From Candidatus Omnitrophota bacterium (GTDB lineage Bacteria; Omnitrophota; Gorgyraeia; Tantalellales; Tantalellaceae): DNA of 64,000 nt. Of the stretch, positions 24,001-64,000 are shown piece after piece. Position 1 is the first letter of the stretch, and each line of letters begins with the position of its first letter. The DNA lies in assembly GCA_049642065.1 (NCBI GenBank), contig JBAROK010000007.1:2134-66133 (forward strand), given 5' to 3'. The position numbers and the translations under genes are program-made. The notes under the pieces are model-generated. The model did no database searches, was not told the DNA's origin, and saw nothing but the letters and a program-made list of their open reading frames with translations.

Positions 24001-26272
24001 TCCCAAGAAGGGTGCGAAAGCCATACCTGACTTCAAGAGGCGCAACGTATTAAGTGAACAGGGCTTGAATGTAACGGAAGATTTGCTCAGGGAAGCCGGA
24101 CCGGACATATACGAACATACTATGCGCATGCAAAAAATAGCTATACTAATTGCTCGTCGCTTGATCTCTAAGGGGACCAAGATAAGCGAAGAGTCTATAA
24201 GGCTTTTAAGCAGGGCAGCTTTGGCACATGATATAGGGGCAAGAGAAAAATACAATCCGGCTGTTAAGGATATACGTAAAAAGATCACCGCTGGCATACA
24301 TGAGCATCCCGATGACAGGGTAGAAATGACCCAGGTATCCCTAGATAAATGGGCAAGCACAAGAGCTCTCAAATATAAGAACGTGCCCAAAGCAGAGCTG
24401 ATAGAGACTTTAAGGATAGCCAAGGAAACGGGTAATTATTATTCTGTTTATCGCATGTATATAAAGTATGTAGCCTTAGGCAAAAAAGAGCGAGAATCTC
24501 TTACTATGGAAGAAGAAACGGTGACCAGGAACCTTTTCAACCATGGTGAAAGGTCCGTTGAAATATTGCGTGAAAACCTGATCGAAGTCCCGGCAGAATT
24601 CGAACTTCTTGTTAAATACCATCACGATTATAACGGTCTTGAAGATAGGCTCCGAGAGATGGCGAAAGAGGATAGGATCACGCCCGAGAAGAGCGAAGAG
24701 ATAAAGCTTCTTTCTACTATTCTGATAGTATCGGATGTATTCGAGCAGGGCAATAATTACATGCGTCTTGTGGAAATAGCCGGAAGGGACGAGGTCGAAA
24801 GTTTCGGGAAGACGTTCGACACTTTTAATGGTTTCATGTGGAAGAGATTCCATCAGACAGAGCATATAAGCGATACAAGGGCGATAGAGGCGCTTAAAGA
24901 TCTCGTGGTAAAGGATGTCCCGTTATCAGTTAGCGGCATGGGTTCAAGGCCAATTGTTGATAATGATCTGGCGGTTATAATAGCTGAAGCCAGAAAGGTT
25001 CAAGGAACGCAGAGGAACTGGCTTACTTCCGAAGACAGGGCTTTTCAGCTGCGGGAACTGGCCAGGCGCAATCAGCGGACTCATGCTCCGTTGACATTCG
25101 AAATAGCCGTAGGGTTACCTTCTAAACTGTATGACCGGCTTGATGAGGCTGCGCTAAATAAACTAAGAGATGTTCCGGGCATAGCCTCTATCGTAAAGGT
25201 AGAGTCATCAATGAGGGTAGAATCGATGATGGATGAACTTGCCCATAAGACCGAAGGTACCAGATGTATCAACGCGCTTATAAGCGAGGATGTGATAAGT
25301 GATACAACTGATATCTCTAAGGGAATTAAAGAGCTTGAGAAAGTGCTTTATGACTTTGTTAGTAAAGCAACCAAAGATATCCTGGCGCTTACTGATCCGG
25401 AAGTAACTGATCTGACTGAAGAAGGCGTAAAGGCAATAGATGATATCAATGAGCTTGAGGCTATTATGGGAGTTCTTATACGCGCATTACCGCATAACGA
25501 GTCCTATTTGCTAAGTGAAAAGAGCCTGAGGCAGATAAGGATAGAAAATGCGTACAGGGCATTTGTCGCTCAGCGCTCGGAAGAGACAAACCGTGTTGAA
25601 TACCTTGAAAAGATGGTTGAGAATACTGGTAAGCACTATCTGGCGCATTTCGCGGATGGACAGGCCATAATGGAGGGCAAAGGTCATATTGTGGTACCTC
25701 CGGGTCTTGAGATCCGCAAGAGACGTGAAATGCAGGGAGTGAACCGTATGATGGACGCTAATACGGACAAGTTCTTTATAGTAGCGCCGGAAAACGTCAA
25801 AACAGACGATGAGAAACAGCAGTTTAAGAGCAAGTTAATGGAAACATGGATGCTGGACGGTGTTGTATCGGAAGGAGATGTCATCATACTCGAGAGAAGA
25901 GGAATAGATAAGAATTACCGTGCCAGTGAGATCTATAAGATGGTACAGTCGGAATACAAGGATTCCACTAGCACAAATACGGGTATCAGGTGCATCAAAG
26001 GGCAGCTTGAATACGATAACGCAGCGGAAAAAGAGAACATTCTGCAGGTAGGTATGTCGCAAGATGCGGTAAGCACTGTGAACCAGTATGAGGTGTTCGT
26101 GAACCTACTGCTCACGCGTGAAGACGGCGATATGGGGTATACGATATCTGGATTACAGCAGCTGACCAAGGGGCTTTATATGTACCTGCCGTTTGCCAGG
26201 CCGATAAATCTGGAGAAAGAGATAAGGCATTATCATGACAGGTTCGTCAAAGAGGTACTCATAAAGGCCTAA
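2..26272 (+). CDS. Giant multidomain protein, 5'-partial. The frame is open from the window edge, so the ORF-track TTG at 65 is not a real start. At least 8,756 codons in the window; stop TAA at 26270-26272.
   Basis: 26.2 kb uninterrupted reading frame (frame 2) with no in-frame stop back to nt 2. Many recognisable enzyme motifs along its length (see the domain features). Followed by a strong intrinsic terminator at 26362-26390. Confidence 0.9.
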   Translation, partial: SDFDQKVRIIGEWLFPAINDELNKLGLENIEDVDEFGNQVVKERLFKERKEAETSGRFKRGEDGELALDDTYEEVKVVKEFSQMLMDLEAGRVTGIQPGYLMYIAELVEYLEGSRQLNFYRKGTIGNFRVDECTVPLKGENHTFYVLRFRDTGKVLFGVAVKGDKWIKVNGRDANVENKLGKIYELLKSEGYTLVAELADFKMATREELKSRLAELTALAKDEEVEKRFPIYQLGTKGIEGGFIQTQIASPGKVFGIISIDTPGKKDLQQEWSSKIYVPGKGYIAPDDTSKASKAAGAIADSGATNNHANITLRREGFASVIGMGSHQMVVEGNVIRIKCNVPSTEDVIRGNETRTIRHYKEGEVVLRDGDLVMIDASEDSSDGVVVAVGKTQSEEKDFSAEAKELFGVLRDIELGGPLQEGSQYSQLYKRTVGRITGAETKIRDMRLLNMRRILKDASSDKTVNLAKMVAEILIDTSMITDSDKARRTLETLLRSLDDNVRGEVEEFIKLLFGKKVYQIEKEIHAVLGEVGISNVKKNPSSTLLYSNTEHILLEIRDLNDKMALVAEMIPGVDYDPGKGLFAEEADIIRKRFNEALEYLRSKKLDELSAYHSEYRIAEIERILKAADINEEKWIELSDELETLRRTSRGWMLDKIERDLSKVRRDIIKAECLGCDLSSPEMLTLQMEVNRMVAVANIKTMRQKGPGRYVIDLSELGSIYRQVAGNKAAEVAEVMKISESADSYTYRTDSGLTEIRNILKDGFDQVPSGFVISSLAVYSVIQENSAIRPDIEALISGNVAPEEKIEKLTELLLAKGKIPEFLKEMIAEKYSSMAGESKEPIVITRSTSQMEDLLDETRPGVRKAGKYLSFECVKGIDQIKKNIFKHLAHFWVTEGDVNDLHPILVQEMLFDLHSSFVANSVDSAEKNWNVANIDAVLGLGRGVVEGGEGIAIHTFKADNEGRITGRIVPPHNRMWAPAPSGIGIKLVDVPAEMKAARALTEEQVAKIAKLARAFQKYYRFPVNIEGGVTKDGKIVIFQVRPDSTLKSNSYSMSGTGIHSPPVEKIIALRKQYLAAENPSAEELGKVDPAAISELIDTNINELYQARKSESEVRDLEYKLVERLVQFKGYHYDRAREVVMDLRLYHRRSDVVDKLDELFFEELKQILRERLFEEGEFNRDREKISYFVENFHNLQEIREGKDIPNGNLFKSKPEYRDAVITWEERIDRYAYRYFTNKVAWDTAKTNAEKVIFNNVLVRHLSEKAKGEMYAFIRYLVPRLYENIPPLKRLRRPTIVLIGGTTASGKSTSARSVAKNLGMPYYFSADPIREVQRKLIPKDTNLSPADKRSSFQEDPAEKGFIEHGSSVIRSLNECARWAVNENRSMVIEGVHLIPGLIDPKLFEEANVVQIIVTVADEKGHAARIEKRGKEESGRGGAGRYLKDFDKIRKANDLFDEQARSHGVVRVDNSSDFTRTISEVLFYAAGPYKDKAKQGPDERLRAMLDNKVTREKVRTSSSLGKYVKSVYTLGESDKLYIDASEIEPGVIDKSEIEALRNAIVQTTSSGALVIRDFDRLVAEGRSLLDFAASIGFDDVIIGQEALFARTAKEVEPILQGLTAYAAELNVKVLIENLPTTGNAEISIGLKDAYGKGVQDIDMEAIVLADENGEPAGMIEDGDAVFFACKRGEREIQITLPFVAEKIGQKFTDLVVKTYEKIKFGIMTLYHDMFDPLPVAFRPMRQKDPLVDVLSGAGKRFLLSAESEKINHITYFFKGQSREPMEGEEIFSVDSPPKDEHLDRPELSLPALTKGITERMETGNFDFVGINLANCDVIGHYYDPTDVEKNKEIIQIRREAAEAVDEHLGILLEAAKKQGYSVIVTADHGVGEVAVKKGKGVGKHTTNLVPFIVVDPDTTKASVISIAETGRLGDVAPTVLDLMKMQKPEEMTGQSLLVDYPENADPKKVMLIVMDGWGIGAESEDNPIHIANTPVLDSLYKEYLNTRIKASQEEVGLLAGDSGNSEAGHLNLGAGRIVLGDDIRIVNAVKGEPIEGDTTLDENAAILETIAHANEHGSNLHLIGLLSDASSHGRVAHVLELLKLAKRKREEFREEGKGDGFKEVFMHMITDGRSTESGTAPVLLLDMQKQMSRIGLGKIVDCVGRNLALDRAYNWGKTKKAYRLFAMGEGKQVGPVGIAEQLLRDIPELGVAYNWDNHTLSGDRPGFVGSLDVRERVGAIFVTDTTVKDEEKNIFGAFDGHGDIPFFVYRMPKAAKTPEKKKEEETILSAETAQAIIDKCQDKLKATRKSLEAIHAYQYQRVVKLAEDPTLHFDKARKNLNGLFAEIEKILNSPDLERRQRKEAIRALMEGFIGLFGWQTIQSVREHLERDDLPVDILDGVNTYEDLKNALNENAKVNIPDEKIVNYRSKITRRNIEMRELAIEYIELVEEQKRLYNEEREAIREAYVEITGEELVDEEKLHVAARKAYPEYVLDVPHLKDTDKPTFVNVAGVMGVNSADVAHAIAERSGIPSRMHSGMLRGVISGIWPEDFISATDNFNIGKDIKDAYVKAFNKEAKAALEVILTGEGNISRAEAEAILKKFAENWKQAILEPIYSDWVRLTNQGTKQAIKRLLKEKSSQVFVGVFPGLLDPAHHEDANIVSIIVKVEDINEHWDGFLVSAKARGVDNPSDCMAEFFANRILQDHLTDLGRDLILPEVRETAVVDSSNMESAVRNAVNRVIDPIADRYVEVPNEIKEKAELEEKVVLAKYTEAWVKYLKIPQISIAWLLGWAVLRSVSPEAAIAFSIASIFGVIFMVIASKDRLFLEKAVASAVLAVGVSTFVPGCSEAKKDPRPEPRPNAAAASDGDKPGNKESQEKPFEIKPGENIPARDRNKEKKPSEDTMKAVSGLIDNVLAHTDRDRTEDYRKNAKFLMIMTMMVESDQFASSVQYGGGPARGLAQFEPATAKYVRDQVNKLTENKRFKKALQVTFGEKWEEKIFGLSSEEIIRKMEEKLEEVKKELAEAEKKEDLERMFNRKDEMVDLEEALGRRGLRTFFMNWRFRILIIKALGADWGSVSAMNGYRIGQELARNDFFTVIMTRINYFRNRNPIPSRTDIGAVYRYYLATWRPGKPVSFERFKRLVKVVEESGVMKEAVIEKTAAKTSDIAADQREDAPARMEARRRPWIVVLFVLTALSALLFWITYKKMFESFLKSAKQGTVFKMDLFTDIFDRKDLLRKLVASGKEVTVGRIPGTHKYLFRMGDKKYTTTELGEEYAEYIPEGHVHPAEGTAEERANAFMPSDHDLLKSHGNWRYIVSELGITWYATDGAVIETAIEDYATFWHSACHRSLDSIKKMMDERFDVKIDFDQMDLSKTKTRTGRSLLFGKTALSEKPERPSGDVHPFSASEAYKGVVVAFAVSVVMAAMFASKLVFNGFAGFDTIATISAIVGIYSIFTTARYYLLGKATYYALLAEELSPRQAHVRAIATSDGWRHPAFHKLLSKEKEIIEIHESYKNHLMGMIMIMPGFLLVNFLLKRGVTEIADRDENRDKVVEQRDFSNLSVYLNNLRSENEQLISPVPVIREVVEAGSSQVKQLEVGRSAELELKKSRQGQAAREEPSPSQKKIVRNWRFSVEPKGILYGQVEVEVLDKVSQDVVSKVYFQDALEMMKNLAGERLLWTNPTSADKSKNLHFHLYREKTPLPVENHELEPLCEDKDGEGVIYTVKDYPDEDHPIAAFVVKGTLSQINLMSARCYDIEKILRANGQTADKLFVEGEDGEIKVYFYPRRAGYAKIFDSDKARRLIGPVSLSGLWSFANQKDYSRFTKEDLYGVLSKVAVLYKSRNFQRISDAIVRNFREAEGAGILPPSVSFRLFSDSPFAEERKEPENLDERILRRKKVLDALYEDGVRRVNFTFTIPTAGMESEDEWIILQQALEHAKWKGMTSVLSIRNIVHRISVIEKQWARVEQYILPWVDKISLNAQVQNENLDKALRIFGQNCSNKSIEIYTCVNDRNKDKIESLARFMREYIGSFNTVEWEISRENMVRGNDAISEDDYVQLTSKLREAHPGLPIDYAVLTREETNLHVYNDGKLAIKDEGALKNVGDLFIPDTLKDKSNQSVFRRITENISVQSTYIPRKDEVTALPSTYVASTREEFTKAINKMQAKTLLPHIEWETEVAGAIGYVIGMTDKEIEILALAIQAHHLGHIPRAKNKKEFEKMLAVLKKAYPPDHDLKGGEVWHIRDAINRLFAAEGGEGKTEPQRFDIFRAEMASLLGKKDLTSDQKAIARSMLDSKAYMQEVLKENKMKLPADLRILTEYYGRHDRYTEARSREEDRFRMELSIDPDRMAKLIAISRIASTFVNRIDESVRSLRGEAGDSMPEIISFIVDNLKRDGETGDNILEALDGLIALIREQDSTILSIANRARGGDEGLMIAKSDRSFLRFLQKGVGKVRNKRQNMRIIESFRRYEKGIVAEDYYRWAIAAGIVSGFLGLISLFTGSMWVIGVTCYSLWALGRYYSIGRDIERGTGAVQLDKELAKKTPVVKIRPDGLLERDEKICKSLPPFTNRMLKIHEIFGMRISAMIFTLPIVGRIITNTYVEMKRLNMWMDFTIRKNRPLVTYDAFNPSRVRGRRDQMDFENGSWKWRRGDGLALIADIGDDLRRRIEEVQEALKKVVPDAEKLFLMEPERLHITVATLTKNTTSVDTNPERRAKRESLIRETKSRVSALGSGGIEVSFSLNDLTIWDNGDIAILGRMENRGLDEIRTSLDEFNLSVHKKDIVHVTVGRIFDEDISVDTFNEIRDVLEKFRNGKTEGDKKKFFTMTPELFIWDQAGKTDDKKYIHIPRTKKSGRDSKRLSKLGEPKRRDLSGVASKETNPLIERLIKEGKIVELFEQNGQLDAYRVKWVEGYQPGRVQEEVFGEEVDVDEMFTRSQQDNMLRWMRLHGLPDSRGGVHFRIALDNAALGWTGDEEHSNISHAGYRDGCIYIGERLLASIFTDPDDPLRKLILDEDEYNHLRDRDFDCRADKSRYEARLKSVFSRVESILREPPRKYDLYLCTSDEKAVSVYDGEDRDNPQSIHWGNFMPRDPIYVVGNMKPVKVSAGLYIANDFNISSSNIKMKVWMGPADNVNRWSEIRLERVYTNELEKGTEYLFAGMLPSYFKGDFTFKYSLDGGKTWKWANRGENDNRRIERKRTDTIIHEPMGYRVDEKIVTPDYKKHRTIRLYQGNEDLSDIVDAASSADEFFWGKGIHDSDNGHSYYRTNFGALEFRSSAEAKIIHMGDILSSENEYEGQLLIYYDDIQNAIVMRVNSNPGEALEHDAVSDPQERKWNRAVITIPLDHEGRAKRVEHEQTVMGISRAGLSILLRHAGINRKFPKLFRLIQQELVLYHVDDYMFLKHMYGNGMTPVEALNTVMDHPQSVSPEQISYIENMVKYTKSRVLGHLALRCLGKLVDEGMYDRDEYLKYARYTSEKDVLEGMATAERVIRQDDSFLKQMGINPEKVKSIFMRWFINGPNKTIYRVTCNMSNGEERVFAIEVKSPLGSAQGYSMLQIENAMRIWKKKSDKGYDYVPHVFVVKRVDDYRPKILTAPIKGLNIDREGEFHIESLDIESSRVVYDDILVVAREFVEGYQLPDYLAYGTVSAEETRRATVAGLKAFLKLWKDGQDPATGRGPFPMRPAPRDVIVYKIGETYHGVVAEMDSLREGFAIREVIRALQSCGYDKKDVISAAREVLAENERAIITENYGKYKSERVTEMFFAADKGSELHAVQTKGMDDEDAHRIAVKIANTAYELDEDKKRASFTKIRGALRYLSEKVNRNTNIPDDLRKKLSWKIDIFLRQNFWQNVKYYPVRAGRADVFEMLEGFVTDGTVYLVEGFIDDRDLSREENIAGVILYQILSELCSEERMEQLPSKPDYWDSVKGPEGVQNLILGDREEFERKIAKYARKEHIRIAMEDKVLGRNLVTYQGLKNLPEARKNAEEFLETICRIMETEKPEIKGDEDLAEYLRKRFGVRKFVIGGGKGTRFSPEGIMVKQLFKPDNYNTNIKQSRISSAFGMLEDVIVVDAITIFNLLHQDKELLAEHKTTMFFNVRENLVNLMDSGYINREQCKELVGKIKNIIDNELVYTHRSDHLRDLGSAMESAARAVEDVLGKKNERAQFVTDKISYAVFKVIMAIGEELIDENKKDELFGKNCIVILDSGDGHGSAYVEALRALNYSGKLDQARYSVIVHADSPGWGLDEYPNYVFISYLKTVNTVSPQVQDMPKVTIAAKNPRDKRAQGRARIDTITVENVGEVPVGVREWNELSYQEKKESREKAKAQDPTWFTNANILICDTMWAYDKKDVLESEYRHELGRMGKMKRRPAEYWSSDYLNIAAREYLQLIKKDPETAPLTRLVFIGQDAPNANKTLGRALEYRDALQKMILRKIRRMGVEVDKDTTVAISSTDVGPNFDLDKIIEDIFGDNLEGPAKFGNTKLRGAIHLDATVVVQKGAILDGRKKDVSLTGNCVVERGVELHGVVRADYLFDKNELLPTNKFYITGRQFRDSTTEATVVDNVDFRELGLIVDDRTRIWIAKKDKGESDLSVLKKIFGSDHPDSGRVTDQIFVYGDVVLDSTVRVENGTMLDGRVDEVILVGDTHVHKGVNLKSVKANDTTFAGWSDLDIYHYRQPTHDGNVGIRNSEFDNSYIEIRAEVINSMIRNSYVANGAMVEESDVADEVVVNGEEVRDRRLNRKDDALSVSVTAEEDGKVNYMPGAFRLEELPNEDIEDILGYQIKSARKLYMKFISDPILLERMVQETEQFIRSSVTPRFTIQQIRQYLIAKIRDNCDKEPDVSKFRPLVEDLRAHAKLWMANAIEIDINDEAASKAFFKELSILATRANFIDFSIDPKMFDIDQLVETDEAQRKKFTDLVDEFADSDLAIDGYSEFEKMVFSPEKGVFLFFTDNIGETEIDAVMWEFLARMGHTVVIAAKDGFSYADIDVKGVEETVNAHPSLCKHRDEGRIKVIASGSMSEGVFPHKFSDEVQDVLLYGTKLKGIIAKGQANLFTLSARNKISVPVVVMCLSKSRTSKKITGIDIKENEDGSKLFPPMIAVVPAGENIANCIGRGVFGGKLTRFGKKDEGDSSTGDTHAFTARDGMRWAKRFLTGAALFTVVSAIAAIGFVLHLDHLPWGFVIIFAGVDVVLAMISLEYYLLGKEAYKATVKYIFEGRDSRDMLEEDAVSQKQAMDTKIAEHQANNIIKYHPAFRYLSEHAQEAVKIHESFASHKLGMLAMVPVLGRILWLKLRDVHDRDMLIHSDYSNIEQVLRTQLERNVDTEFLKEAYRKGAKEEPIEGSRILKVTDRSGDPDIKRQQGFLRYERTVNKRCTFCNIPDLSTEVHRSKTAEWAFSVEPSPVFSSQMIAINSRHIDQGTMGPEVYYDMFQMLKNLKGWQMSWPGRLSTSHPDHFHVHMFERDKNSPVEEYDMQPICRDRKGEGVVHLIKDYPDRDHAIAAFAIAGSIRNAAVFAKRCADLEAIIKSAGYEVDKFITKGANGAIKVLFYPRTASYMKIGPSGRGRLTGPIELSGIWVTQDEKERDAFSLRDVHDILSKTTLRLYSDSFQALEDQIKRHFYEAEGIGLLPSSMDLMVTNKCNLNCPVCWGSYMPKHRIFAPDNADIEWVDFKEKKIKYRGTGQERVEKFEDNQKTAHELEVIRSKLSMYYCTEPESPEIEHIRFFSLAGDGKKVEKVTVRFTEGKTDSMALGSDEYNDAVLMVQKKMIDVMHKNGMRRMVFTGGEPLLEDNLAELLKYAKEKNITTWLFTNGLLMDEEKADQIMPYVDMISLSLDGHDDATNSRNRKPGHFVAVLKVLRILSRKYPEKEVQILTVVTERNKAYIRKIGFLLRQVTKGLKSFQWKLNYYKRIGRSQHERDIKNDVFLMEYGKFVSLAKSVQKEFTDIKVRYSPPDHDKAYLFVFPDGTLSTTVGPEYLELGNILDADTLREEDNLKIFKTITDNIRKRAIYIPKKGAKAIPDFKRRNVLSEQGLNVTEDLLREAGPDIYEHTMRMQKIAILIARRLISKGTKISEESIRLLSRAALAHDIGAREKYNPAVKDIRKKITAGIHEHPDDRVEMTQVSLDKWASTRALKYKNVPKAELIETLRIAKETGNYYSVYRMYIKYVALGKKERESLTMEEETVTRNLFNHGERSVEILRENLIEVPAEFELLVKYHHDYNGLEDRLREMAKEDRITPEKSEEIKLLSTILIVSDVFEQGNNYMRLVEIAGRDEVESFGKTFDTFNGFMWKRFHQTEHISDTRAIEALKDLVVKDVPLSVSGMGSRPIVDNDLAVIIAEARKVQGTQRNWLTSEDRAFQLRELARRNQRTHAPLTFEIAVGLPSKLYDRLDEAALNKLRDVPGIASIVKVESSMRVESMMDELAHKTEGTRCINALISEDVISDTTDISKGIKELEKVLYDFVSKATKDILALTDPEVTDLTEEGVKAIDDINELEAIMGVLIRALPHNESYLLSEKSLRQIRIENAYRAFVAQRSEETNRVEYLEKMVENTGKHYLAHFADGQAIMEGKGHIVVPPGLEIRKRREMQGVNRMMDANTDKFFIVAPENVKTDDEKQQFKSKLMETWMLDGVVSEGDVIILERRGIDKNYRASEIYKMVQSEYKDSTSTNTGIRCIKGQLEYDNAAEKENILQVGMSQDAVSTVNQYEVFVNLLLTREDGDMGYTISGLQQLTKGLYMYLPFARPINLEKEIRHYHDRFVKEVLIKA
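880..1180 (+). other. PEP-utilising enzyme mobile (phospho-His) domain-like region within gene 1.
   Basis: AIADSGATNNHANITLRREGFASVIGMG...GDLVMIDASEDSSDGVVVAVGK resembles the GG.TSHAAI.ARE.G.P.VVG...DG..G.V pattern of PEP synthase / PPDK / rifampin-phosphotransferase His domains. Confidence 0.4.
2100..3130 (+). other. PEP synthase/PPDK N-terminal (ATP-grasp-like nucleotide-binding) domain-like region.
   Basis: VAGNKAAEVAEVMKI...FDQVPSGFVISSLAVY matches GGKgAnLgE...vPpGFviT. The C-terminal PVNIEGGVTKDGKIVIFQVRPDS matches the DIEWa.ddgklyiLQsRPvT end of PPDK_N. Confidence 0.45.
3865..4440 (+). other. 2-phosphoglycerate-kinase-like P-loop kinase domain.
   Basis: Walker A IVLIGGTTASGKSTSARSVA, then FSADPIREVQRK and MVIEGVHLIPGLIDP. 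This parallels the GG.SGvGKST / tD.iRevmR / iiEGvHlvP pattern of 2PGK-type kinases. Confidence 0.5.
4850..6800 (+). other. Cofactor-independent phosphoglycerate mutase (iPGM/GpmI)-like domain, circularly permuted: the C-terminal ~260 residues come first, then residues 1-~300.
   Basis: Segment 1: KRFLLSAESEKINHITYFFKG...GINLANCDVIGHYYD...VTADHGV...NLVPFIVV...GDVAPTVLDLM..PEEMTGQSLL, corresponding to iPGM residues ~325-510. Segment 2: MLIVMDGWGIG...NTPVLDSL...GDSGNSEAGHLNLGAGRIV...LHLIGLLSDASSHGRVAHV...ITDGRST...VGRNLALDRAYNW, corresponding to iPGM residues ~5-235. The residue ~250-300 region (DGDAVFFACKRGERE and GAIFVTDTTVKDEE) occurs in both segments. Confidence 0.7.
7484..8060 (+). other. 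Second, degenerate copy of the 2PGK-like kinase domain (Walker A lysine/serine lost).
   Basis: FVNVAGVMGVNSADVAHAIAERSGIP aligns with IVLIGGTTASGKSTSARSVAKNLGMP (GKST -> VNSA). VFPGLLDPAHHEDANIVSIIVKVEDINEH aligns with VHLIPGLIDPKLFEEANVVQIIVTVADEKGH. Confidence 0.5.
8330..8520 (+). other. Two or three transmembrane helices within gene 1.
   Basis: IAWLLGWAVL..., AIAFSIASIFGVIFMVIAS and AVASAVLAVGVSTFVPG are hydrophobic stretches. They are followed by the Pro/Lys-rich linker KKDPRPEPRPNAAAASDGDKPGNK. Confidence 0.5.
8690..9400 (+). other. Lytic transglycosylase (SLT/lysozyme-like) domain.
   Basis: LMIMTMMVESDQFASSVQYGGGPARGLAQFEPATAKYV fits the SLT signature E-S-x-F...S.aGA.GLMQ..P.TA with a catalytic Glu. 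Downstream GYRIGQELARNDFFTVIMTRINYF and AVYRYY are consistent with SLT family C-terminal motifs. Confidence 0.55.
10200..12990 (+). repeat. Paralogous module A of gene 1 (TM/YYLLGK segment, then HIT/GalT-like, radical-SAM-like and HD-like domains). This is the catalytically degenerate copy.
   Basis: Aligns along its length with module B (21430-24680): TTARYYLLGKATYY / SLEYYLLGKEAYKA; RHPAFHKLL..IEIHESYKNHLMGM / YHPAFRYL..VKIHESFASHKLGM; GEGVIYTVKDYPDEDHPIAAFVVKG / GEGVVHLIKDYPDRDHAIAAFAIAG; VDKISLNAQ / VDMISLSLDG. Module A lacks the Cys pair, has LHFHLY instead of HFHVHMF, lacks CxxxCxxC and GGEPLL, and has AHHLGH instead of AHDIG. Confidence 0.6.
13900..14400 (+). other. 2H phosphoesterase (LigT / cyclic phosphodiesterase)-like domain.
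   Basis: Two H-x-T-x motifs ~95 residues apart: ERLHITVATL (14054-14075) and IVHVTVGRIF (14326-14346). Each is preceded by hydrophobic strands, which is the hallmark of the 2H family. Confidence 0.35.
15300..15560 (+). other. Possible carbohydrate-binding (CBM20/21-like beta-sandwich) module.
   Basis: MKVWMGPADNV...YLFAGMLPSYFKGDFTFKYSLDGGKTWKWANRGEN resembles the W...FKY..DG..W.W..G.N pattern of starch-binding CBMs. This is a weak call. Confidence 0.2.
18020..18700 (+). other. Sugar-1-phosphate nucleotidyltransferase (NTP_transferase) domain.
   Basis: FVIGGGKGTRFSPEGIMVKQLFKP matches the GGxGTRLxPlT..PK.L signature of glucose/mannose-1-phosphate nucleotidyltransferases. Confidence 0.45.
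19380..20230 (+). other. Left-handed beta-helix (hexapeptide-repeat) region following the nucleotidyltransferase domain.
   Basis: Runs of [LIV]-G-x-x-x-x hexads: GNTKLRGAIHLDATVVVQKGAILDG, LTGNCVVERGVELHGVV, GDVVLDSTVRVENGTMLDGRVDEVILVGDTHVHKGVNL. Confidence 0.4.
20700..21200 (+). other. DUF89 (ARMT1/damage-control sugar-phosphate phosphatase)-like domain.
   Basis: VFLFFTDNIGETEIDAVMWEFLARMGHTVVIAAKDG and later IIAKGQANLFTLSAR resemble the DNxGE...D and KGxxNyE.L signatures of DUF89 proteins. Confidence 0.3.
22020..22700 (+). other. HIT-superfamily (GalT / Ap4A-phosphorylase-like) nucleotidyltransferase/phosphorylase-like domain.
   Basis: Cys-x-x-Cys (RCTFCN at ~22088-22110) upstream of the histidine triad HPDHFHVHMF (22322-22351). 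This is the arrangement seen in the GalT branch of HIT proteins. Confidence 0.4.
22870..23650 (+). other. Radical SAM domain (SPASM/MoaA-like core) with an unusually long insert between the Cys triad and the Gly-rich SAM motif.
   Basis: TNKCNLNCPVCW (CxxxCxxC; 22888-22914); ~130 aa later VFTGGEPLL (23315-23332); then YVDMISLSLDGHDD. Confidence 0.55.
24100..24760 (+). other. HD-domain phosphohydrolase-like domain.
   Basis: EHTMRMQKIAILIARRL...RAALAHDIGAR (H...HD) and downstream LLVKYHHDYNG, as expected for the HD superfamily. Confidence 0.45.
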
Positions 26273-26648: not shown

Positions 26649-26693
26649 TTAACTATTAGACGATAAAAAAGCCAGAAGGGTATATAAATAGCG

Positions 26694-26705: not shown

Positions 26706-29700
26706 ATGAAAGCTTGGCATGATAAAGGATCGGACAGTATAGACTTACCAAATATAGCCGCCTCCGGCGGCGAGGTAATGCCTAGTATCTCGACTTTCAA
26801 GTCAAGGCATGTAAAGTTTATCAAAACAGTCGCATTAGTTGTCGTAGGCCTGTTTCTGCATCAGCAGATCGTATGGGCTACCGGTGGCGAAGCCATTTGG
26901 ACTACTGCCTTAAAAGGGAGTAAGTACGATTATAAATATGACAATTACAAAGGTGGCCAGGACTTTGAAGTGCCTTATGACGTTGCTCAGAAACAGGCAA
27001 CCCATCTTAACGGCGGCGACGAGGTCATAATCCAGATACAGGACGCTCACGCGTCTCTTTCTGCGCAATACTCAATCGTAAAACTGCTCGATTCACTTGT
27101 TGCTAATTACGAGCTCAATTTCGTTGCCCTTGAGGGCTCGAAAGGGCTTTTGGACACATCAGTACTCAGCACATTTCCCGATAAGGACATACGCGAAAAT
27201 ACGGCTGATTTTCTCATGAGAGAAGGTCGCATGAGCGCCGGTGAGTTTTTTACCGTTACGCGCGATAATGACATACGCCTCTACGGTGTTGAAGACGATA
27301 AGCTGTACCGTAAGAACGTTGAAAGTTTCTGCGATGTAGCGTCAAACCGTACGGAGCTGGTCAGTATTGTTAAGGCTTTCGAGAAGAATATAGATGCCCT
27401 TGAAGAAAAAGTCTACTCAGATGACCTCAAGACCTTTATCGCCAAAAGCCGCGAGCACAGAGAAGGCTCTTTGAGTTTTACCGATTACTGGAAACAGATC
27501 AACGAGTTCGCAAAACGCTTCAAGCTGGATACCTCGCGTTACGAAGAGCTGAAGAAGCTTCTTGAGACGGTTGAACTGGAAACCCAGATAGATTTCGTAA
27601 GAGCCAACCAGGAAAGGCGCGATCTTATCGACGCTCTCAGCAAGAGCATGGATAAGGGGGAACTTGAAGCGCTTGTTCTTAAGTCCGTTGATTTCAAACA
27701 GAATAAGATCTCGCAGGGTGCCTTCCACAGTTACCTGGCAACCCTTGCGGAGAAACACGGGGTAAAGACCGAAGGATACGAGAATCTTATTGCTTTCACC
27801 AAATACGTTTCGCTTTACGAGACTATCGATATTTTCGGTATGTATCACGAGATAGAAGCATTCGAAGACAATCTGCGCGAAAAATTTTACCGTAACGATT
27901 ACGAACGCAAACTGCACAAGATGGCCAAAATGGCGCGTCTTCTGGATAAGCTTTACAGCATGGAGCTTACCAACGGTGATTGCGCGTATATCGATGCGAA
28001 CCGTGCCGAATATAACGCGGCTGAGTTCGCCGGGTTCATTAAGGAAACTTCCAAAAAGTACAATGTTCCTGTAGGCAGTTACGATATAGCCCAGATGCTT
28101 TCCGGTATTGATGAAGCGCTTGAATTCTACCATGTGGCTGAATCCAGAAATAAGGCCATGCTTTCTAATACTGTACGCCATATGAGAACAGAAGGGTCCA
28201 AAGTGGCAGCTCTTATCACCGGTGGTTATCACACTAAGGGTTTGACGAAACTTATGGAGGATAAGGAACTGTCTTATTTGGTTATCGTACCGAAGTTCGA
28301 GAAAGATAAGGAACGCCCTTATGTCGCCATACTTACTGGAAAGAAAAAACCGTACCAGAAGCTCCTGGATTCCGGCAAGTACCAGCTTGCTGTCGAAGCG
28401 TATTTTTATTCTACTGAAGGTGATATCACCAGGATGCAAACGGCTATATTCCACGCATTAGGTGAGACCGTTCTGGAAGGTAAGGATCTTGCAAGCATGA
28501 AAGAGCTTTGGAAAAGGGCTTACAGCTCAAGATACGAATCGTTTACACCCAGGCAGATAAAAGATATGCCTTTCGAGCCGATCGATCCGGATGAGTTCGA
28601 TAGGTTCGTGGACGACATACACGTAGTTTCCCAGGGGAGCGATAGGGTAATAATAGGGATAGGCCATGAACTTGCTTATGTTACTTTGAGCAAGCAGGAT
28701 GGTTCTACCGTTATGGGAACAGCTACTTCAAACCAGAAGGCTCATTACGCGAAAAGGCGTGAGGGGCAGATAAGGAAGGATCTTGAAAAGAGGGTGCTGA
28801 ATGACTCTGAAAGAAAGGAGATCGAGCAGAAACTAAGTTCTTCCGAGCTAGTCGAAGAGATAGCGGCTCAGCTAGGAGTTGTTAAATACGGGGTAACGAC
28901 CGTTACATTAGATAAGATTGTTACCAGGCTTAGAGCCAAGGGCGTGCAGATACCTGAGAACTGGAATGAATATACGGATCTTAAGCATCTGGTCAGTGGT
29001 TTTGCCGGCCGGGTGTTCAAAGAAATGCGCAAGATCACGCATATAAAGGTAAATAATTATATACGCGAGAATATCCCTGAAGGGCTTCTTGCGGATACCC
29101 TGGAAGAAAGGCAAGCCAATCTGAAAAAATTATACCCGGAAAAGGTAGAGAGCGCTGATTATAAAATAAGTGCAAGAGTCATACCTGTAGTAGGGCTTTA
29201 TGTCGCGACCGGCCTTAAGGCTCACTTAGGCCTCGGCAGGGCTTATGGCGAACCTGTTATGTATATTGATGACGATTATTGCGACGAACAGGTTCTCAAG
29301 CACGAGTTTTATGAAATGAGCAGATGGGAAGCTAAACGCCGGGACCTGAACCTGGACCCGCAGCAGATGAGGGACTGGATATTCAGTCACCTGGACGAAG
29401 CGCGTAAGTTGAATGATGAGTTTCACGGGCAGAATCCTTACGAGGTTGAAGATCACAGAGCACCTAACGTAAAGTTTGTTTACGCTGACGAGCTTGACAT
29501 CATTATAGCTGCTTCTTCGGATGAAATTGCCGAGAAGGTAAAGGACATAATTAAAGATCTAGTTGAGCTCAGGGATAAACCGGGAAAGATGACCCAGAAA
29601 ATCATTGATGCTGCAATAGCCGTGGTCGATGCAAAAATGAAAAAGATGGGTATAACTAAGAGTTCTGTCGAGCAGGCTACTTGGGACAAGATACAGTTCA

Positions 29701-32700: not shown

Positions 32701-35700
32701 TGGAGATCCGTGCGTGGTTAGCAGATTGGCGCAAGCAGATGGAAGAAGTAGAGAGCGAAGATATTCCGGATGTTAGCAAGCTCGATGATATCATTCGCAT
32801 CAGGATGAAAGAGCTGAATGCCAGGAAGAAAGAACTTGAAAATAAAATAACAACAATGGAAAAAGAGTCAGGTAAGACTCGCAGGACTTCGACCGAGCAG
32901 CTTGAGAACATACTTAACAAGGATTTTGAGTTCACTGTTAAAGGAGACGGCGAGGTAGACGGCATAAGGCAGATAATAGCCAAGAAAGCCGCTTACAAGG
33001 TTCTCGAGCATATGGATAACTGGCATTCCCGTGTTATGAAATCCGAGGAGTTCGAGAATAAGAGCGTTAAGGCCATAGAAGAGTTCATACAAGAACAGCG
33101 TGAAGAGATGGGCCGCATAATGAAAAGGTACGGTATAACCGAGGAGACAGTGCCCGGTGAAGTAGACGAGCTTAACCGTATGTTCAATTTCTGTGCCATG
33201 CAGGCTACGGTAGAGGCGTCCAAGAGACGGAAACCGCAACTTACAGAGACGCAGCAGCTTATCGCTCTGGAAGCCCAGAGAGAACATGAAACTCAGGAGA
33301 AACATAAAAAGACCCATGTCAGCATCAAGCCTGCTAAACCGAGCCAGAGCAGCGAAACAGAAAAACTTATCGAGAGAATAAATAACGGTGAAAGCATGGA
33401 AGATATCGCTGATGACGCTATCTCTGTGATAGAGGCAATCATAGCGGATAATCAGGAAGAAGAACCCGCACGGGCAAAAGACGAATTCAGTGACCTGGTA
33501 AATCACTCTTATGAGGACGGTCATGCCGTACGTATAGTCGGGGCGATAGAGATAGCTTTCAGTAAGATACAGGATTCAGATGAAACCGAAGAAGCAGCCC
33601 GTAAAACCATGGTGGATGGCATACGTCAGATGCAGAACGTTTTTGATTCTGCTCCGGAACTTACAGGGAACGAAGAAGCCAAAAGACAAGCTTATCATAT
33701 ACAGGATCTGGGTGAATGTGTTCTTGACACGGCGTTCAGGTCAAGGTTCAGGAAGTTCAGTACGCTTTATGACAGCCAGAGAAGGGCAGTAAAAGACGTT
33801 ATCATCAAAGAAACCAGATCGAGAGACGGTATGACAAGAAGCAAGATCGGTCAGATGCCGACCTCTTCCGGTAAAACGATAGCACTTTATACAGGTGCTT
33901 ATATCATGGCCATTAAAGCTCTTAGTAATAGCGGCAAAGAGGAATCCGAAGGTGTGCTTATCACTTCTACGGAAGAGTCCAAGGCAAAGGAAGATGCGAC
34001 GGAAGCTGCCAGAGCCCTGGCGAGGCTTGGTATTCAGGTAGGGTTTATAGGCTCCAGCCCGGAAGGTCAGCCAGTAGGATACCTGTTTGACGTTACTACG
34101 AACCGTCTTGAAAAAGTTGAGAACGATACCAGGGTGTATTCTGAAGCTGTTGTGATATACAGTACGCTGGATAAGTTTGTTCATCGTTCGCAGAACGAAG
34201 AAATGGCGCAGGATCCAAGAGAAAGACAGTTCATATCTCGTAAATGGCGCCTGAGAATGGACGAAGCGGACGTGCCGCTTATATATGACCTTTCGAACCC
34301 GTTCATCGTTTCCAGTACACAGGGAGACCCCAGGTTGCTCCGCAAGATAGACCAGGTTGTCCGTGAACACATAATAGTCAAGGAACTGCGTAAAGAACTG
34401 GGTATAGACGTTTTTGACTCGATGGAGCTGCGAGATAAGCTGGCCAGAAGGGATTTCTTGAAACCTGCTGGTGATCTTACTTCTGAAGAAAGGGCGCAGA
34501 TAGAGCAGAGGATATACGGTGATACGGAGCTCTATAAGACTGACCGGAAAAAGAGAACTGTAACTTTTAACCAGGATGGGTTATATGTCCTGGCCCAACA
34601 GCTTGAGACGCTCGGTGTACCGAGAGATGCTATAAATGCGAACAGGGCGATATACGGCAGACTGGCCGAGACCGCTCTTGCCTCACATCTTTTTGACGAA
34701 AAATACAAACATTATACAGAAATGGTAGTTCGCGGCAAACAGGAAATAGTCCTTCTGGATGAAGGTACGGGCCGGGTTAAGTTCGGCCGGTTGCCATATG
34801 ATCTCCAGGCCGCTATTGAAGCTAAAGAAGACCTTCCGGTAATGCCGGAGGAAGATTCCGATCTTATATACCAGATAGACGGTATCGTTCGTGACAAGGT
34901 ACTGAACCATCCGGGGCTTTACGAGAAGAAAGAGAACGAAAGATTCGTGATGCTGAATTCCCGTGGGCTTCAAGTTATGGAAGAGGCTTTGGTGGAAGCG
35001 GGCAGAAGAGCAGATGACGTGAAACGCGATAAGGCCAAATTCGAAGAACTGGCCGAAAGGGCTCTTGCGGCATCGCTTTTCTATGTGAAAGATAAAGATT
35101 ACAGCGTTATGAAAGTTAACGAAAAAGATGAGATCATCCTCCTTGATGAAGGTACCGGTAAGCCGATGTATGGCAGGAGATTGTCGTATGGTCTTCACGC
35201 CGCGATAGAAGCCAAGGAAGGGCTTGAAGTTAAACCTGAGGGAGTCGTTGTTGCATGGGGAACCCTGAGCGGTTTTCTGGAACAGTCTTTCATCCAGTCT
35301 TTCGGTGGTGTCACGGCGACAAGCGACAGGGATGCTATGATGCAGCTTCATAAACTGGAGACTGTTGATATATTAAGAGGTTTGCGCGACGAAATGTCAA
35401 TAAGGGAATTCAATAGAGCTTATGATGACCTTGAGCCGGAAGAGAGAGCGAAAATAAATACGGTGGTTTTTGAGAGCCGCAGGGAAGAAAAAGATCCGCA
35501 GATATACGCGACCAGGACAAAGAAGGTCAAAGCAGTCTTCCGGGTTGTGATGAGAGAACATAAGAATGAGAATAAAAGGCCCATTATGATAAAGGTGGCT
35601 AATGACGTCCAAGCCCAGGAAATGGCTGCCCTTATAAGGAACGGCCTGAGTGAGAATGCTGACATAGAGCTTCTCAACAAAATGGCACAAAGGCTGTTCA

Positions 35701-38700
35701 ATAAACCATACGCTGAGCTTGACGCGGAACAGCAGAATAAGGTCAACAACATAGAGATTATGACAGCCGCAACGTACGCGGATATAGAACGTATCAAGAA
35801 AAGAGCCGGCCGGGAAGGCCAGATAACCATAGTGACGAACCTCGGTGGAAGGGGTATAGATATAAAACTTACAGCTGAATCTGCAAGGATAGGCGGACTT
35901 TTCGGTATATCCACGTATTTCGATGAACTTTCCGCTTCGGATATACAGTTCAGAGGTCGTGTCGGAAGAAACGGCCGTCCGGGTATGTGGATGGGGTTCT
36001 GGTCCCTTGAGGACAGGGCGTTCCAGAAATATGCAGAAGCTCACCCGGAAGGCGTGCAGATACTTAAAGATATGCTTGCGGCAGTCGAAAAAGATGAGAG
36101 ACAGCCAAGTAAGCATATAGGTGCCGAGCCCATAGTTAAACAGATTGTCGAAGAGATAAGGGAAAGTATCAAGAAAAGGCATATATATGGCAACCGTCAG
36201 CATCAGGAACTTTCTGAATATATAGAAAGACGTAAAGACGCGTTTTTTGGTAAAAGGGATAAGCTTGTATTCAAACTGAGGGATCTCATTGACAAAATAC
36301 AAGAAGAGAAGAAGAAATTAGAGGAAGTTGACCGCAGCATACGCGAGCATGGGGAAGAGTTCATGGACCTTATCGGTGAGTCTGCTCCGGCAATGGACGC
36401 GTCTGCTTCACAGATAATTGAAAGAGTTATGATCGCGTGCGAAATGAACGATACTGTCGGTAAGAACATAACGGACCTGGCAGCGAAAGGCGATGAGATC
36501 GCCAGTAACCTGGTAGATATCATAGGTAGCAGGGAATATATCATTGAGACGATAAGGGAGATGGAAGCCGACAGGAAAAAGCTCATGCTTCCTATAGTGA
36601 AAATGGACGTTTCCTGGAAGAGATTTCTCGCTAAAGCGGGTAATATACAGAAAGACCTTGACCGCTTTATCAGGCATTACGGATGGCGCCAGGCGCTTCT
36701 TCAGATAGATCCGGTAGTTAACCGTGAGGCTATGGTGAAGGAAGCTTACGAATCAGAGTTTGGTAAACCGCATATAGGGTTAAGTATTTTCAAGATGGCT
36801 GTCAGGGCAGTTGTTGTTTTTGGAACACTGTTCGGTGTATCCATTCTTGCGCCTTCGGTACTTGTTGGATTATTTAATGTTATCGGCTTGCCATTTACAG
36901 CGGGATATATATTCCTGCTGGTTGCGGCGACGCTGGTAGCGGTAAAACCGAAGATCGGCCTGTCTGTTTTAACGATGACCGGTTTCTGGGCCATTTTCAA
37001 GAGTCTTTTCAAGGTAATGGACCTACATTATCTTACGGTTAAACTGACATCAGACGCGTTTTCCCTGATGACAAATGACGCTTATCTGGTTTTTCTTACG
37101 GGGCTTGTAAGTGTGGTGTTCCTCGGGGTCACTCTGATGATGCAGAGGAAGTTCTTGAAACAGTTCCAGGAAGTAGACAAGAGCCTGAGGAATTTTGCAC
37201 GTGCTTTTCATGATATTGAAGGTGTAGGGTTTACCCGGGCCATGGTCAAGTTTGTGTTCCAGCAGGTGCTTAGCCTGGTAAATTATATAGCGCCAATGCT
37301 GGCAGGGCTTTGCCTGATCGTAACGGCTGCATTTCCTCCTTTTGTTAGCGGCGCCCTGGTTGTGGCACCTGTTACTGTCGGGATAGGGGCAGCTATAGGC
37401 GCGTTGGGACTTTTGACAACAGCAATAACCATATTAATCAACTGGAGACAGATCAAGGAAAGAGGCGTACACCGTCCCAGTATTCCAGAAAGATATGTTT
37501 CGGTAATAATTGACAGCGTTATCGGATTGACCACTGGTTTCTTTGTTTACACAATGGCTACACAGGTCAATCCGCTTTATATCATATTCGGTACCGCTGC
37601 GGCTGTGCTGCTTTTAATGATTACAAAAAGGAGTGTTTCCAAGGCTTTTGGAACGCACGCGATCCATAAAAAGACTGTTATGAGGGGAATGGCTCTTGCA
37701 CTTCCTCTGACAATAGCTTTGGTGCTTGTGTCACGGGCTATCGGTATGACGACTACCCCGCTTACGGCTGCGGTAGCGCTGGCGTCAGTTCCGTTTTTCA
37801 TGAGTTTAACAGGATATTTGGTTGCACAGTGGTATTCAGCTAAGAGGCTTTCCCAGATAGAGTCGAAAATAACTGGCATTTCCAGGACTAGAAGTTTTGT
37901 GGCTACTGTTTTTGAGCAGAACGTTCTTAATGTCAGACAGTGGGCTCCCGGACTTGGAGCAGCGACTACACTGGTTCTTGGAGTATGGGGGCTCTTAGGC
38001 AAGAGCAGCCTTCTCAATGGTGTGCCGATAACACTGGGAGTGCTCACCGGTCTTTATATCATGTTGCGCATAGCCAGGGAAGTATACAAGAGGCGGTATG
38101 CTAAAAGGGATGTTGCCGAAAAGACCATAAAAGATCTTCGCCTTGCCAGGAACGTTATATCAAAGGATGAGTTCTCTCGGCTCAGAGAAGCGGCTACAGC
38201 GTATAAAGCCGAACGTTTCAATACGGATAATCCGTATCTTCTGGCTGTCACAAAATTGGACGCAGCTATTGAAGGCAATTCAGTGCTTAAAAGGATATTG
38301 AAAGAGGTTACCGCGCACGGTCCTCCCAGCACCGGAAAATGGGATAAAGCCGAACTTAAAAGCTCGATTGAAAAAGTCATATTTTTTGAAAATGCCGTAG
38401 ACTTAAACGGTGATGTGGTCCAGATGGACGAGCAGGGAGAACTTGCTGTTACAGCGTATATATCTCTTTTTGAAGAGTTCAACCTGGTCAGGACATTCCT
38501 TGATAGAGCATATACATCCGCACGTGATCCAGAGAACTGGATGAAAGCCCTCAGATATTCGTTCCTATTTTCTATAGGGTTCCCGCTTCTTGTCGGTGGC
38601 GCTAAAGCCGCATATGTTAAACGTGAACAGGCGGTTGCCAAGCACGAAAGAGAAGTCGCGCAGCAGAAATTACTGCAAGAGATGAGGATGGCTAAGCTGG

Positions 38701-63627: not shown

Positions 63628-63680
63628 ATATATAGCCTAAAAGTAAGACGATAAAAAAGGCAGATATACAGTTTTTACAG

Positions 63681-63691: not shown

Positions 63692-64000
63692 ATGCTGAAA
63701 CGCATCAAGTTATTTAAAATAGTATCAGTATTACTACTGATCGTGTTCGTCCATGAACAGCTTGGATGGACACAGGATGGTGCGCCTGTATGGGCGGATC
63801 TCGAAAACGTCAGCAACATCCCGTCTGGAGAACTTCCTTCTGAAATAAAGATACCTTACGATATTGGTGAAGTGTGTGATGCTACCACCAACGGTACAAG
63901 CGAAGTTATCATAAATATCCAGGATGCTCATGCATCTCTATCTTCCCAGTATTCCATAGTAAATATACTCGATAACCTTGTATCTAATTATGATGTCAAA
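63692..64000 (+). CDS. Start of a third large gene (3'-truncated by the window edge). Its N-terminus is paralogous to that of the 26706 gene.
   Basis: ATG at 63692 preceded by GGGGGGAG (63681-63688) and by a TTGACC-N17-TATAAT promoter. Signal-peptide-like MLKRIKLFKIVSVLLLIVFV. Conserved block IINIQDAHASLSSQYSIVNILDNLVSNY versus gene 2's VIIQIQDAHASLSAQYSIVKLLDSLVANY. Frame open to the window end. Confidence 0.75.
   Translation, partial: MLKRIKLFKIVSVLLLIVFVHEQLGWTQDGAPVWADLENVSNIPSGELPSEIKIPYDIGEVCDATTNGTSEVIINIQDAHASLSSQYSIVNILDNLVSNYDVK

Follow-up and report, generated by a model that had tools for sequence, protein, structure and literature searches.

Why should a protein-export motor lie in the middle of a giant membrane protein? 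The question is raised by a stretch of 64,000 nucleotides, hereafter the window, from a Candidatus Omnitrophota bacterium (contig JBAROK010000007.1 of assembly GCA_049642065.1, positions 2,134 to 66,133). A first-pass annotation of the window had described, within its second gene (gene 2), a SecA-like translocase ATPase built into a giant membrane protein, and had proposed that the motor, fused to its own giant substrate, forms a self-contained export device. The first of these claims holds: the region is almost certainly a divergent SecA-family module, about 25% identical to canonical SecA and colinear with it over residues 2352-3356 (nucleotides 33759-36773; residue n of gene 2 starts at nucleotide 26706+3(n-1)). 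As to its function, the reading that we favor, with a probability of roughly 0.45-0.5, is that of a membrane-tethered translocation motor that acts in cis. Neither the occurrence of SecA domains in giant proteins nor the idea of self-export is new; West-Roberts et al. (bioRxiv 10.1101/2023.11.21.568195) presented both in 2023, and gene 2 is a further example.

The family assignment is carried by matches that are specific to SecA in both sequence and structure searches. The SecA motifs quoted in the first-pass annotation are all found in the + strand frame of gene 2, in the order in which they occur in SecA (translation of 32706-37505). Three Pfam models of SecA domains score above their cut-offs: SecA_PP_bind with 76.6 bits (cut-off 23.5) in two stretches, P-loop_SecA with 55.3 bits (cut-off 27) and SecA_DEAD with 41.2 bits (cut-off 24.6). 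The generic DEAD and Helicase_C models gave only weak matches, under their cut-offs, in the same scan. All 25 of the PDB sequences matched by HMMER are SecA or SecA2, the best being Thermotoga maritima SecA (E 1.3e-29). The excised region (residues 2340-3360) was also modeled with AlphaFold2; the mean predicted local distance difference test score (pLDDT) is 66, with good quality in the long helices and in the two nucleotide-binding domains (NBD1 and NBD2) and poor quality in copy 1 of the cross-linking domain. Foldseek nevertheless placed SecA or SecA2 in the top 36 ranks with this model (E down to 2.4e-23), and the first match of another kind, RIG-I, follows at rank 37 (E 5e-4). The features that define membership in the family are thus largely in place, namely a DEAD-like NBD1 that has its Walker A (GKT) and Walker B (DExD) motifs, a cross-linking domain inserted in NBD1 and closing with the segment of the type xDEFTGRxxxGRRxSxGLHQAIEAKE, an NBD2 that has motif V (GRGTDI in SecA) and motif VI (QLRGRxGRQG), and a scaffold helix with its finger; the helical wing domain and the C-terminal linker with its zinc-binding tail are absent. 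Of the domain searches that the first-pass annotation had suggested, those with SecA_DEAD and SecA_PP_bind succeeded and that with SecA_SW did not. Its interval for the module (33760-36060, residues 2352-3118) was too short at the 3' end, since the homology continues to residue ~3356 (nucleotide 36773). A global MAFFT alignment with canonical SecA is disturbed by the inserts and the duplication described below, so that it misplaces the Walker B region, and we have relied instead on HMMER, hhalign and clade alignments, with the E. coli SecA reference sequence taken from NC_000913.

The nucleotide-binding core of the module (Table 1) looks catalytically intact. The first part of NBD1 contains SSGKT (residues 2387-2391), a remnant of motif Ia and MDEAD (residues 2518-2522); further along the gene 2 protein come the segments LLDEGTGRVKFGRLPYDLQAAIEAKE (residues 2683-2708), LLDEGTGKPMYGRRLSYGLHAAIEAKE (residues 2812-2838) and TIVTNLGGRGIDIKL (residues 3041-3055), and finally ...QFRGRVGRNGRPG, which ends at residue 3093. 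Conservation of the Walker B residues and of the arginines had been proposed as a check, and it turned out positive: gene 2 keeps the Walker A lysine (K2390, the Lys108 equivalent), the Walker B Asp-Glu pair (Asp209/Glu210), motif III in the form TAT, the motif V arginine (Arg509 equivalent) and the motif VI arginines (equivalents of Arg572, Arg574 and Arg577). In a clade motif alignment the same catalytic residues are retained in most of 14 relatives that are only 25-40% identical, a sign that nucleotide hydrolysis is under selection in the clade as well as in gene 2. Damaged motifs do occur: the motif V arginine is missing from the relatives P0127 and P0130, and Walker A reads GKG in P0131 and P0138. 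Two other motifs are replaced throughout the clade. IDEARTPL has become (I/L)(Y/F)xLxxPF, with an aromatic residue (Tyr in gene 2) for Asp217, and HESRRID has become DE(L/F)xAxD, with the loss of Arg565 and Arg566 (Ser/Ala in gene 2). Asp217 and Arg566 are the salt-bridge partners of the SecA "Gate1", through which, as Karamanou and colleagues reportedly found in 2007, the ATPase of E. coli SecA is coupled to the binding of preprotein. Both of its partners would then have been lost together.

Table 1. Coordinates of the SecA-like module of gene 2, its flanking elements and the genes of the window.
Feature	Residues of gene 2	Nucleotides	Strand	Basis or remark
NBD1, first part	2352-2538	33759-34319	+	Pfam SecA_DEAD; HMMER against T. 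maritima SecA; clade alignment
Walker A, MPTSSGKT	2384-2391	33855-33878	+	followed by ...YIMAIKAL
Walker B (MDEAD), RMDEADVPLIYDLSNPFIVSS	2517-2537	34254-34316	+	
Cross-linking-domain-like copy 1, extra and more divergent	2539-2715	34320-34850	+	first SecA_PP_bind stretch
Cross-linking domain copy 2	2716-2850	34851-35255	+	SecA_PP_bind profile positions 3-110 of 110
NBD1, last part	2851-2905	35256-35420	+	motif III GGVTATS (equivalent of GMTGTA)
NBD2	2906-3125	35421-36080	+	Pfam P-loop_SecA; HMMER to SecA 505-600; clade alignment
Motif V, TNLGGRGIDI		35826-35870	+	contains the Arg509 equivalent
Motif VI, QFRGRVGRNG		35892-35984	+	
Long scaffold helix	~3126-3222	36081-36371	+	HMMER, hhalign, model
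Variable helical insert at the wing-domain position	~3223-3287	36372-36566	+	
Two-helix-finger-like hairpin	3288-3356	36567-36773	+	KMDVSWKRFL... helix, GWRQALLQIDP loop, second helix
Conserved polytopic membrane domain	~3357-3795	36774-38090	+	~12 hydrophobic helices
N-terminal signal-peptide-like segment	~33-60	26802-26885	+	KSRHVKFIK-TVALVVVGLFL-HQQIVWA/TG; hydropathy scan
Gene 1		2-26272	+	enters from the left edge; at least 8,756 residues
Gene 2, host of the SecA-like module		26706-63335	+	12,209 residues; open reading frame list and translation
Gene 3		start 63692	+	leaves the window (63692-64000 visible)

The cross-linking domain is present twice in tandem, as the first-pass annotation had recognized from its repeated GLHxAIEAKE segment: residues 2609-2715 and 2738-2845 are 47% identical over 108 residues (E 7e-25). 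The repeat core of copy 1 (residues 2609-2715) ends in ...DLQAAIEAKE, and this copy is the more degenerate of the two, with FG-RLPYDLQAAIEAKE at the place where copy 2 has GRRLSYGLHAAIEAKE. Copy 2, which HMMER aligns with SecA residues ~338-400, is nearer to the SecA consensus and corresponds to the single copy carried by the other relatives. Since the duplication is shared only by P0001, the closest relative (40% identity), it is best regarded as a lineage-specific elaboration.

Beyond NBD2, the evidence for the scaffold helix and the finger is at the profile level, and by that evidence a scaffold helix and a two-helix-finger-like hairpin are both retained. HMMER aligns residues ~3141-3190 with the scaffold helix of T. 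maritima SecA (residues ~610-665), and the AlphaFold2 model has an 82-residue helix at this position (pLDDT ~75-87). A clade alignment that starts with NBD2 and stops at the first membrane helix is matched by hhalign to residues 387-822 of E. coli SecA (E 2.3e-28). An isolated slice of 81 columns (residues 3285-3365) finds the two-helix finger, residues 762-819 of E. coli SecA, at a score of 33.9 (E 2e-4); as controls, 40 column shuffles of the slice gave a mean of 11.4 (standard deviation 2.0, maximum 17.1) and the reversed alignment 16.8, so that the slice scores ~11 standard deviations above the shuffles and does so at the colinear place. The landmarks of the finger are recognizable, D3301..W3304 corresponding to Asp772..Trp775 and D3335-P3336 to Asp798-Pro799, with the hydrophobic Leu3331 in the fingertip position of Tyr794; the model likewise has a helix-loop-helix at the hairpin. 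By contrast with these elements, Pfam SecA_SW has no match at E<=10 in any of ten clade members, gene 2 and nine relatives. What lies between scaffold helix and hairpin varies, and P0122, P0138 and P0150 have little or none of it, which identifies the wing domain as the missing part. There is also no CPCGSGKK-type tail, and hence no C-terminal linker with a zinc-binding, SecB-interacting end; the hairpin runs instead into a membrane domain. Some genuine SecAs have no such zinc-binding tail either.

The second helix of the hairpin ends ~10 residues before this cluster of ~12 helices. A homologous membrane region follows the SecA-like module in P0122, P0123, P0124, P0270, P0129, P0131 and P0138 (BLAST), and in the long relatives that extend past the module a transmembrane (TM) cluster lies 190-330 residues after motif V/VI. 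The linkage of motor and predicted membrane domain is conserved in all clade members that are long enough to show it. Gene 2 has no second copy of the module or of the membrane domain, and what is visible of gene 1 has neither. A Pfam scan of the membrane domain in 12 members (E<=1) gave no family and no SecY, nor did Pfam reveal a SecY-like domain in any part of gene 2 or of gene 1. The AlphaFold2 model of the membrane domain has a pLDDT of 61 and a predicted template modeling score of 0.62; Foldseek against the PDB found no fold for it under E 0.17, with TM-scores below 0.2 and SecY not among the matches, a lack of similarity to SecY that is only weakly established given the pLDDT of this model. 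The predicted loops alternate in charge: those before TM5, TM7, TM9 and TM11 and after TM12 contain 8, 5, 4, 6 and 11 Lys/Arg residues, and the loops that alternate with them span 2-9 residues and have 0-1 Lys/Arg. In P0126, two clear helices precede the first loop that is rich in Lys/Arg. By the positive-inside rule, the sequences on either side of the membrane domain, the SecA-like module among them, look cytoplasmic, as an ATPase requires. Later TM clusters of gene 2 are found at residues 9664-11808.

At the other end of the protein, the signal-like segment has positive residues, a hydrophobic core and "xVWA", and is followed by a conserved "IQDAHASLxAQxSIV" domain; segment and domain are also present in gene 3, P0270, P0135 and P0150. 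The first 103 residues of gene 3 are 38% identical to residues 34-137 of gene 2 (26805-27116; E 1e-24), the domain reading "IQDAHASLSxQYSIV" in these two genes.

How might such a module work? The sequence of gene 2, by our reading a giant inner-membrane protein, shows SecA homology in all sub-domains but the wing and the C-terminal tail, conserved ATPase motifs and a conserved link to the membrane domain; that the module hydrolyzes ATP and translocates polypeptide, and with what substrate, channel and topology, we infer. Once the protein had been translated and inserted, the SecA-like module would sit on the membrane's cytoplasmic side, permanently tethered there, and would hydrolyze ATP to drive hydrophilic stretches across. 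The cargo could be hydrophilic parts of the giant itself, such as loops in the TM clusters at residues 9664-11808, or alternatively the neighboring paralogous giants, and the channel could be either the ordinary SecYEG of the cell or the attached membrane domain. To speak of the motor's "own giant substrate" and of a self-contained device, as the first-pass annotation did, goes beyond the evidence, since there is no detectable similarity to SecY and both flanks of the membrane domain look cytoplasmic.

Several observations weigh against a tethered motor of this kind. The charge pattern suggests that the ~5,900 residues after the membrane domain are cytoplasmic as well, which leaves no obvious large exported segment immediately downstream. 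The signal-like segment is predicted to have its N-terminus inside and there is no convincing second TM helix between it and the module (gene 2 has one weak candidate, residues 825-843, and P0135 has none); taken at face value, the ATPase would then end up outside the cytoplasm, which conflicts with a cytoplasmic ATPase. A recognizable wing domain and C-terminal SecB/zinc tail are absent, the Q-motif region gave no alignment with SecA in MAFFT, and the clade-wide replacement of the Gate1 pair means that coupling to substrate may differ from that in canonical SecA. Finally, the best score with the NCBIfam equivalog SecA model is 193 bits against a cut-off of 862, and the SecA2 models reach 91-153 bits against cut-offs of 725-1100. 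As these cut-offs are not reached, the module is, on the basis of its profile scores, a relative within the SecA family and not an orthologue of either housekeeping SecA or SecA2. The analogy with accessory SecA2 systems that had been drawn for this locus is accordingly a loose one, the more so as the window contains no SecY2, no Asp proteins and no serine-rich substrate.

These points bring other explanations into play. Perhaps the ATPase has been repurposed and exports nothing; tethered to the membrane, it might instead be a clamp, an unfoldase, a chaperone or a conformational switch that acts on the giant's cytoplasmic bulk or on its partners. This would suit the cytoplasmic look of both flanks of the membrane domain, the neighboring gene 1 with its string of cytoplasmic-type enzyme domains (PPDK, radical SAM, HD), the loss of the Gate1 residues, wing and C-terminal tail, and the duplication of the cross-linking domain with a divergent first copy. 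We nevertheless consider it rather unlikely, as what has been kept goes beyond a helicase core to the parts specific to translocation (the cross-linking domain, the scaffold helix and the hairpin with Leu3331), and the strict adjacency to the membrane fits export better. A bolder proposal would make the protein an autonomous, SecY-independent translocon in which the motor, the hairpin and the ~12-helix domain act together, the last as the channel, and for which its own signal-like peptide might be a cis substrate. The linkage of motor and membrane domain in all sufficiently long clade members speaks for this, as do the short distance (~10 residues) from the hairpin, which in canonical SecA inserts into SecY, to the first membrane helix, and the co-occurrence of the signal-like N-terminus and "IQDAH" domain with the cassette in several relatives. 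Yet the Pfam scan of 12 members (E<=1) found no SecY, the admittedly weak model found no fold under E 0.17, and the predicted periplasmic loops are all very short hairpin turns, so that a bundle of anchoring helices would fit equally well; moreover, Omnitrophota genomes with such giants keep SecYEG (bioRxiv 10.1101/2023.11.21.568195). We therefore regard this proposal as unlikely, and likewise the specific claim of a single-polypeptide translocon whose attached helices are the conduit and whose own N-terminal signal is engaged in cis. If it were true, such a cis-engaging translocon would explain how a Sec-type signal and a cytoplasmic-type ATPase can stand in one protein with no TM helix between them.

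It is very unlikely that the module is just a decaying relic of SecA, inactive and retained as structural filler or as a membrane-proximal scaffold. The ~25% identity to canonical SecA, the sub-threshold NCBIfam scores and the damaged motifs of P0127, P0130, P0131 and P0138 could be read in this way, but gene 2 keeps all of its catalytic motifs and most relatives do likewise despite 60-75% divergence; the joint retention of GKT, DEAD, GRGxDI and QxRGRxGR would not be expected of a remnant. We give next to no credence to the view that the region is unrelated to SecA, being either a generic DEAD-box or other superfamily 2 (SF2) helicase or an artefact of assembly or open reading frame calling. 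The weak, sub-threshold DEAD and Helicase_C matches are what might suggest it. However, the SecA-only cross-linking domain lies within NBD1, complete with its GLHxAIEAKE segment, the SecA models are above cut-off, and SF2 helicases appear only from Foldseek rank 37, so that a generic helicase was rejected; the first-pass annotation had itself named this outcome beforehand as the one that would tell against SecA. An artefact fares no better: the gene 2 frame has no stop codon across 36.6 kb, and over 5,115 residues gene 2 is 100% identical to a partial protein of Candidatus Omnitrophota, GenBank MGB2601781.1, whose 15.3-kb contig is a separate one. The membrane-tethered, cis-acting motor remains the reading that we prefer.

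The closest published counterpart is the clade of SecA-like domains in giant proteins of Omnitrophota and of some Actinobacteriota. West-Roberts et al. (bioRxiv 10.1101/2023.11.21.568195) reported that most such proteins carry divergent SecA DEAD and preprotein-binding domains, which form their own long-branched clade, that the same genomes encode normal SecA, SecYEG, SecB and SecD, and that the adjacent TM regions could anchor the module and the domains may export the giant protein itself. More recently, Nielsen and Lui (bioRxiv 10.64898/2026.06.07.730766) described a PF07517 architecture cluster of 20 proteins among long Omnitrophota proteins. Gene 2 resembles the West-Roberts clade in its phylum, in having SecA_DEAD and SecA_PP_bind within a TM-rich protein of many thousand residues, in its lack of Pfam SecA_SW, in its adjacent TM helices and in its strong divergence from housekeeping SecA, and the self-export hypothesis applies to it equally. 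It differs in several respects. The focus of the earlier work was on proteins of >30,000 residues, whereas gene 2 encodes 12,209; gene 2 has the tandem duplication of the cross-linking domain; the earlier domains were described as lacking both scaffold and wing, whereas gene 2 keeps a scaffold helix and a finger-like hairpin and is missing only the wing; and in gene 2 the module comes before a conserved TM domain, whereas the Dockerin type of the earlier work has its SecA domains after the TM anchors. What our analysis adds is therefore incremental, and consists of the retained scaffold and finger, the lost wing and tail, the replaced Gate1 pair, the conserved membrane domain and the duplication.

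With housekeeping SecA (E. coli, B. subtilis and T. maritima; PDB 3DIN, 5EUL and 6ITC, among others) the module shares an NBD1 with an inserted cross-linking domain, an NBD2, a scaffold helix and a hairpin, together with the equivalents of Lys108, Asp209/Glu210, Arg509, Arg574, Arg577, Asp772...Trp775 and Asp798-Pro799. Unlike these proteins it has no wing, C-terminal linker or zinc finger, carries extra inserts in NBD1 and NBD2 and a doubled cross-linking domain, and is substituted at Asp217 (Tyr), Arg565/Arg566 (Ser/Ala) and Tyr794 (Leu); whereas housekeeping SecA is soluble, the gene 2 module is covalently joined to a polytopic membrane domain. Mycobacterial SecA2 is likewise not known to have a wing domain. 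The accessory SecA2 proteins (M. tuberculosis 4UAQ; C. difficile 6SXH) are alike in being, as the module presumably is, a specialized second SecA paralogue beside a housekeeping one, and SecA2 is among the fold matches of the module; but SecA2 is a free-standing protein of ~780 residues and the module is embedded, and in both HMMER and Foldseek the module scores better against SecA1-type structures than against SecA2.

How widespread such modules are was judged from protein searches and the literature. An HMMER search of 1.84 billion cluster representatives returned 5,083 proteins at E<=1e-3 and nine at E<=1e-30, MGB2601781.1 being one of the nine. Nearly all of the other close relatives are partial "hypothetical proteins" from Omnitrophota/Omnitrophica metagenome-assembled genomes, and the remaining matches are ordinary SecA at ~25% identity. 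The labels of these relatives, together with the 100% match to MGB2601781.1, point to Omnitrophota as the source of the window. A single-protein scan of the GTDB species genomes produced no tblastn-confirmed locus. At L002 4314-18106, P0126, with 2,701 residues, is labeled complete and yet begins inside NBD1 without a Walker A; because it overlaps by 85 nucleotides with the preceding reading frame of 1,923 residues, both are probably parts of one gene of ~4,600 residues, which has probably been split by a frameshift or an assembly error. Its neighborhood has RND-type (ACR_tran) genes upstream and no Sec components.

As for the window itself, it consists of three tandem genes on the + strand and almost nothing else. 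Gene 1 has few hydrophobic segments, and its domains are cytoplasmic-type enzymes: PEP-utilizers, PPDK_N, AAA_18, Metalloenzyme/iPGM_N, an ARMT1-like phosphatase, DUF4922, Radical_SAM/Fer4_12 and HD. The only part common to genes 1 and 2 is a C-terminal domain of ~390 residues (27% identity, E 4e-26), at 62172-63332 in gene 2 (residues 11823-12209) and 25097-26269 at the C-terminus of gene 1, and the two tails are alike: ...EIRHYHDRFVKEVLIKA and ...EIENYERYISEILVRA. Genes 2 and 3 have in common an upstream motif, AGACGATAAAAAAG(C/G)CAGA, at ~26658-26676 and ~63646-63664 (+ strand), ~27-29 nucleotides 5' of the start codons in AT-rich intergenic DNA that is otherwise poorly alignable; it could serve both genes as a leader or regulatory element. 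The GC skew is positive in all 2-kb bins (0.12-0.29) and the AT skew nearly always so, with a GC content of 45-48%, a pattern that fits purine-rich coding (for Glu, Lys and Asp) on one strand throughout the window.

Given that the general phenomenon has already been reported, the value of this locus is incremental. All the same, a SecA-type motor hard-wired into its substrate would be the only mechanistic clue to how proteins of 10,000 to >100,000 residues are inserted or exported, and gene 2 offers an example that is short enough to be tractable and has all of its catalytic motifs intact. The scaffold and finger elements that it retains are those which contact SecY and push the chain, and the motor together with its membrane domain makes up an excisable construct of ~1,450 residues (residues ~2340-3800).

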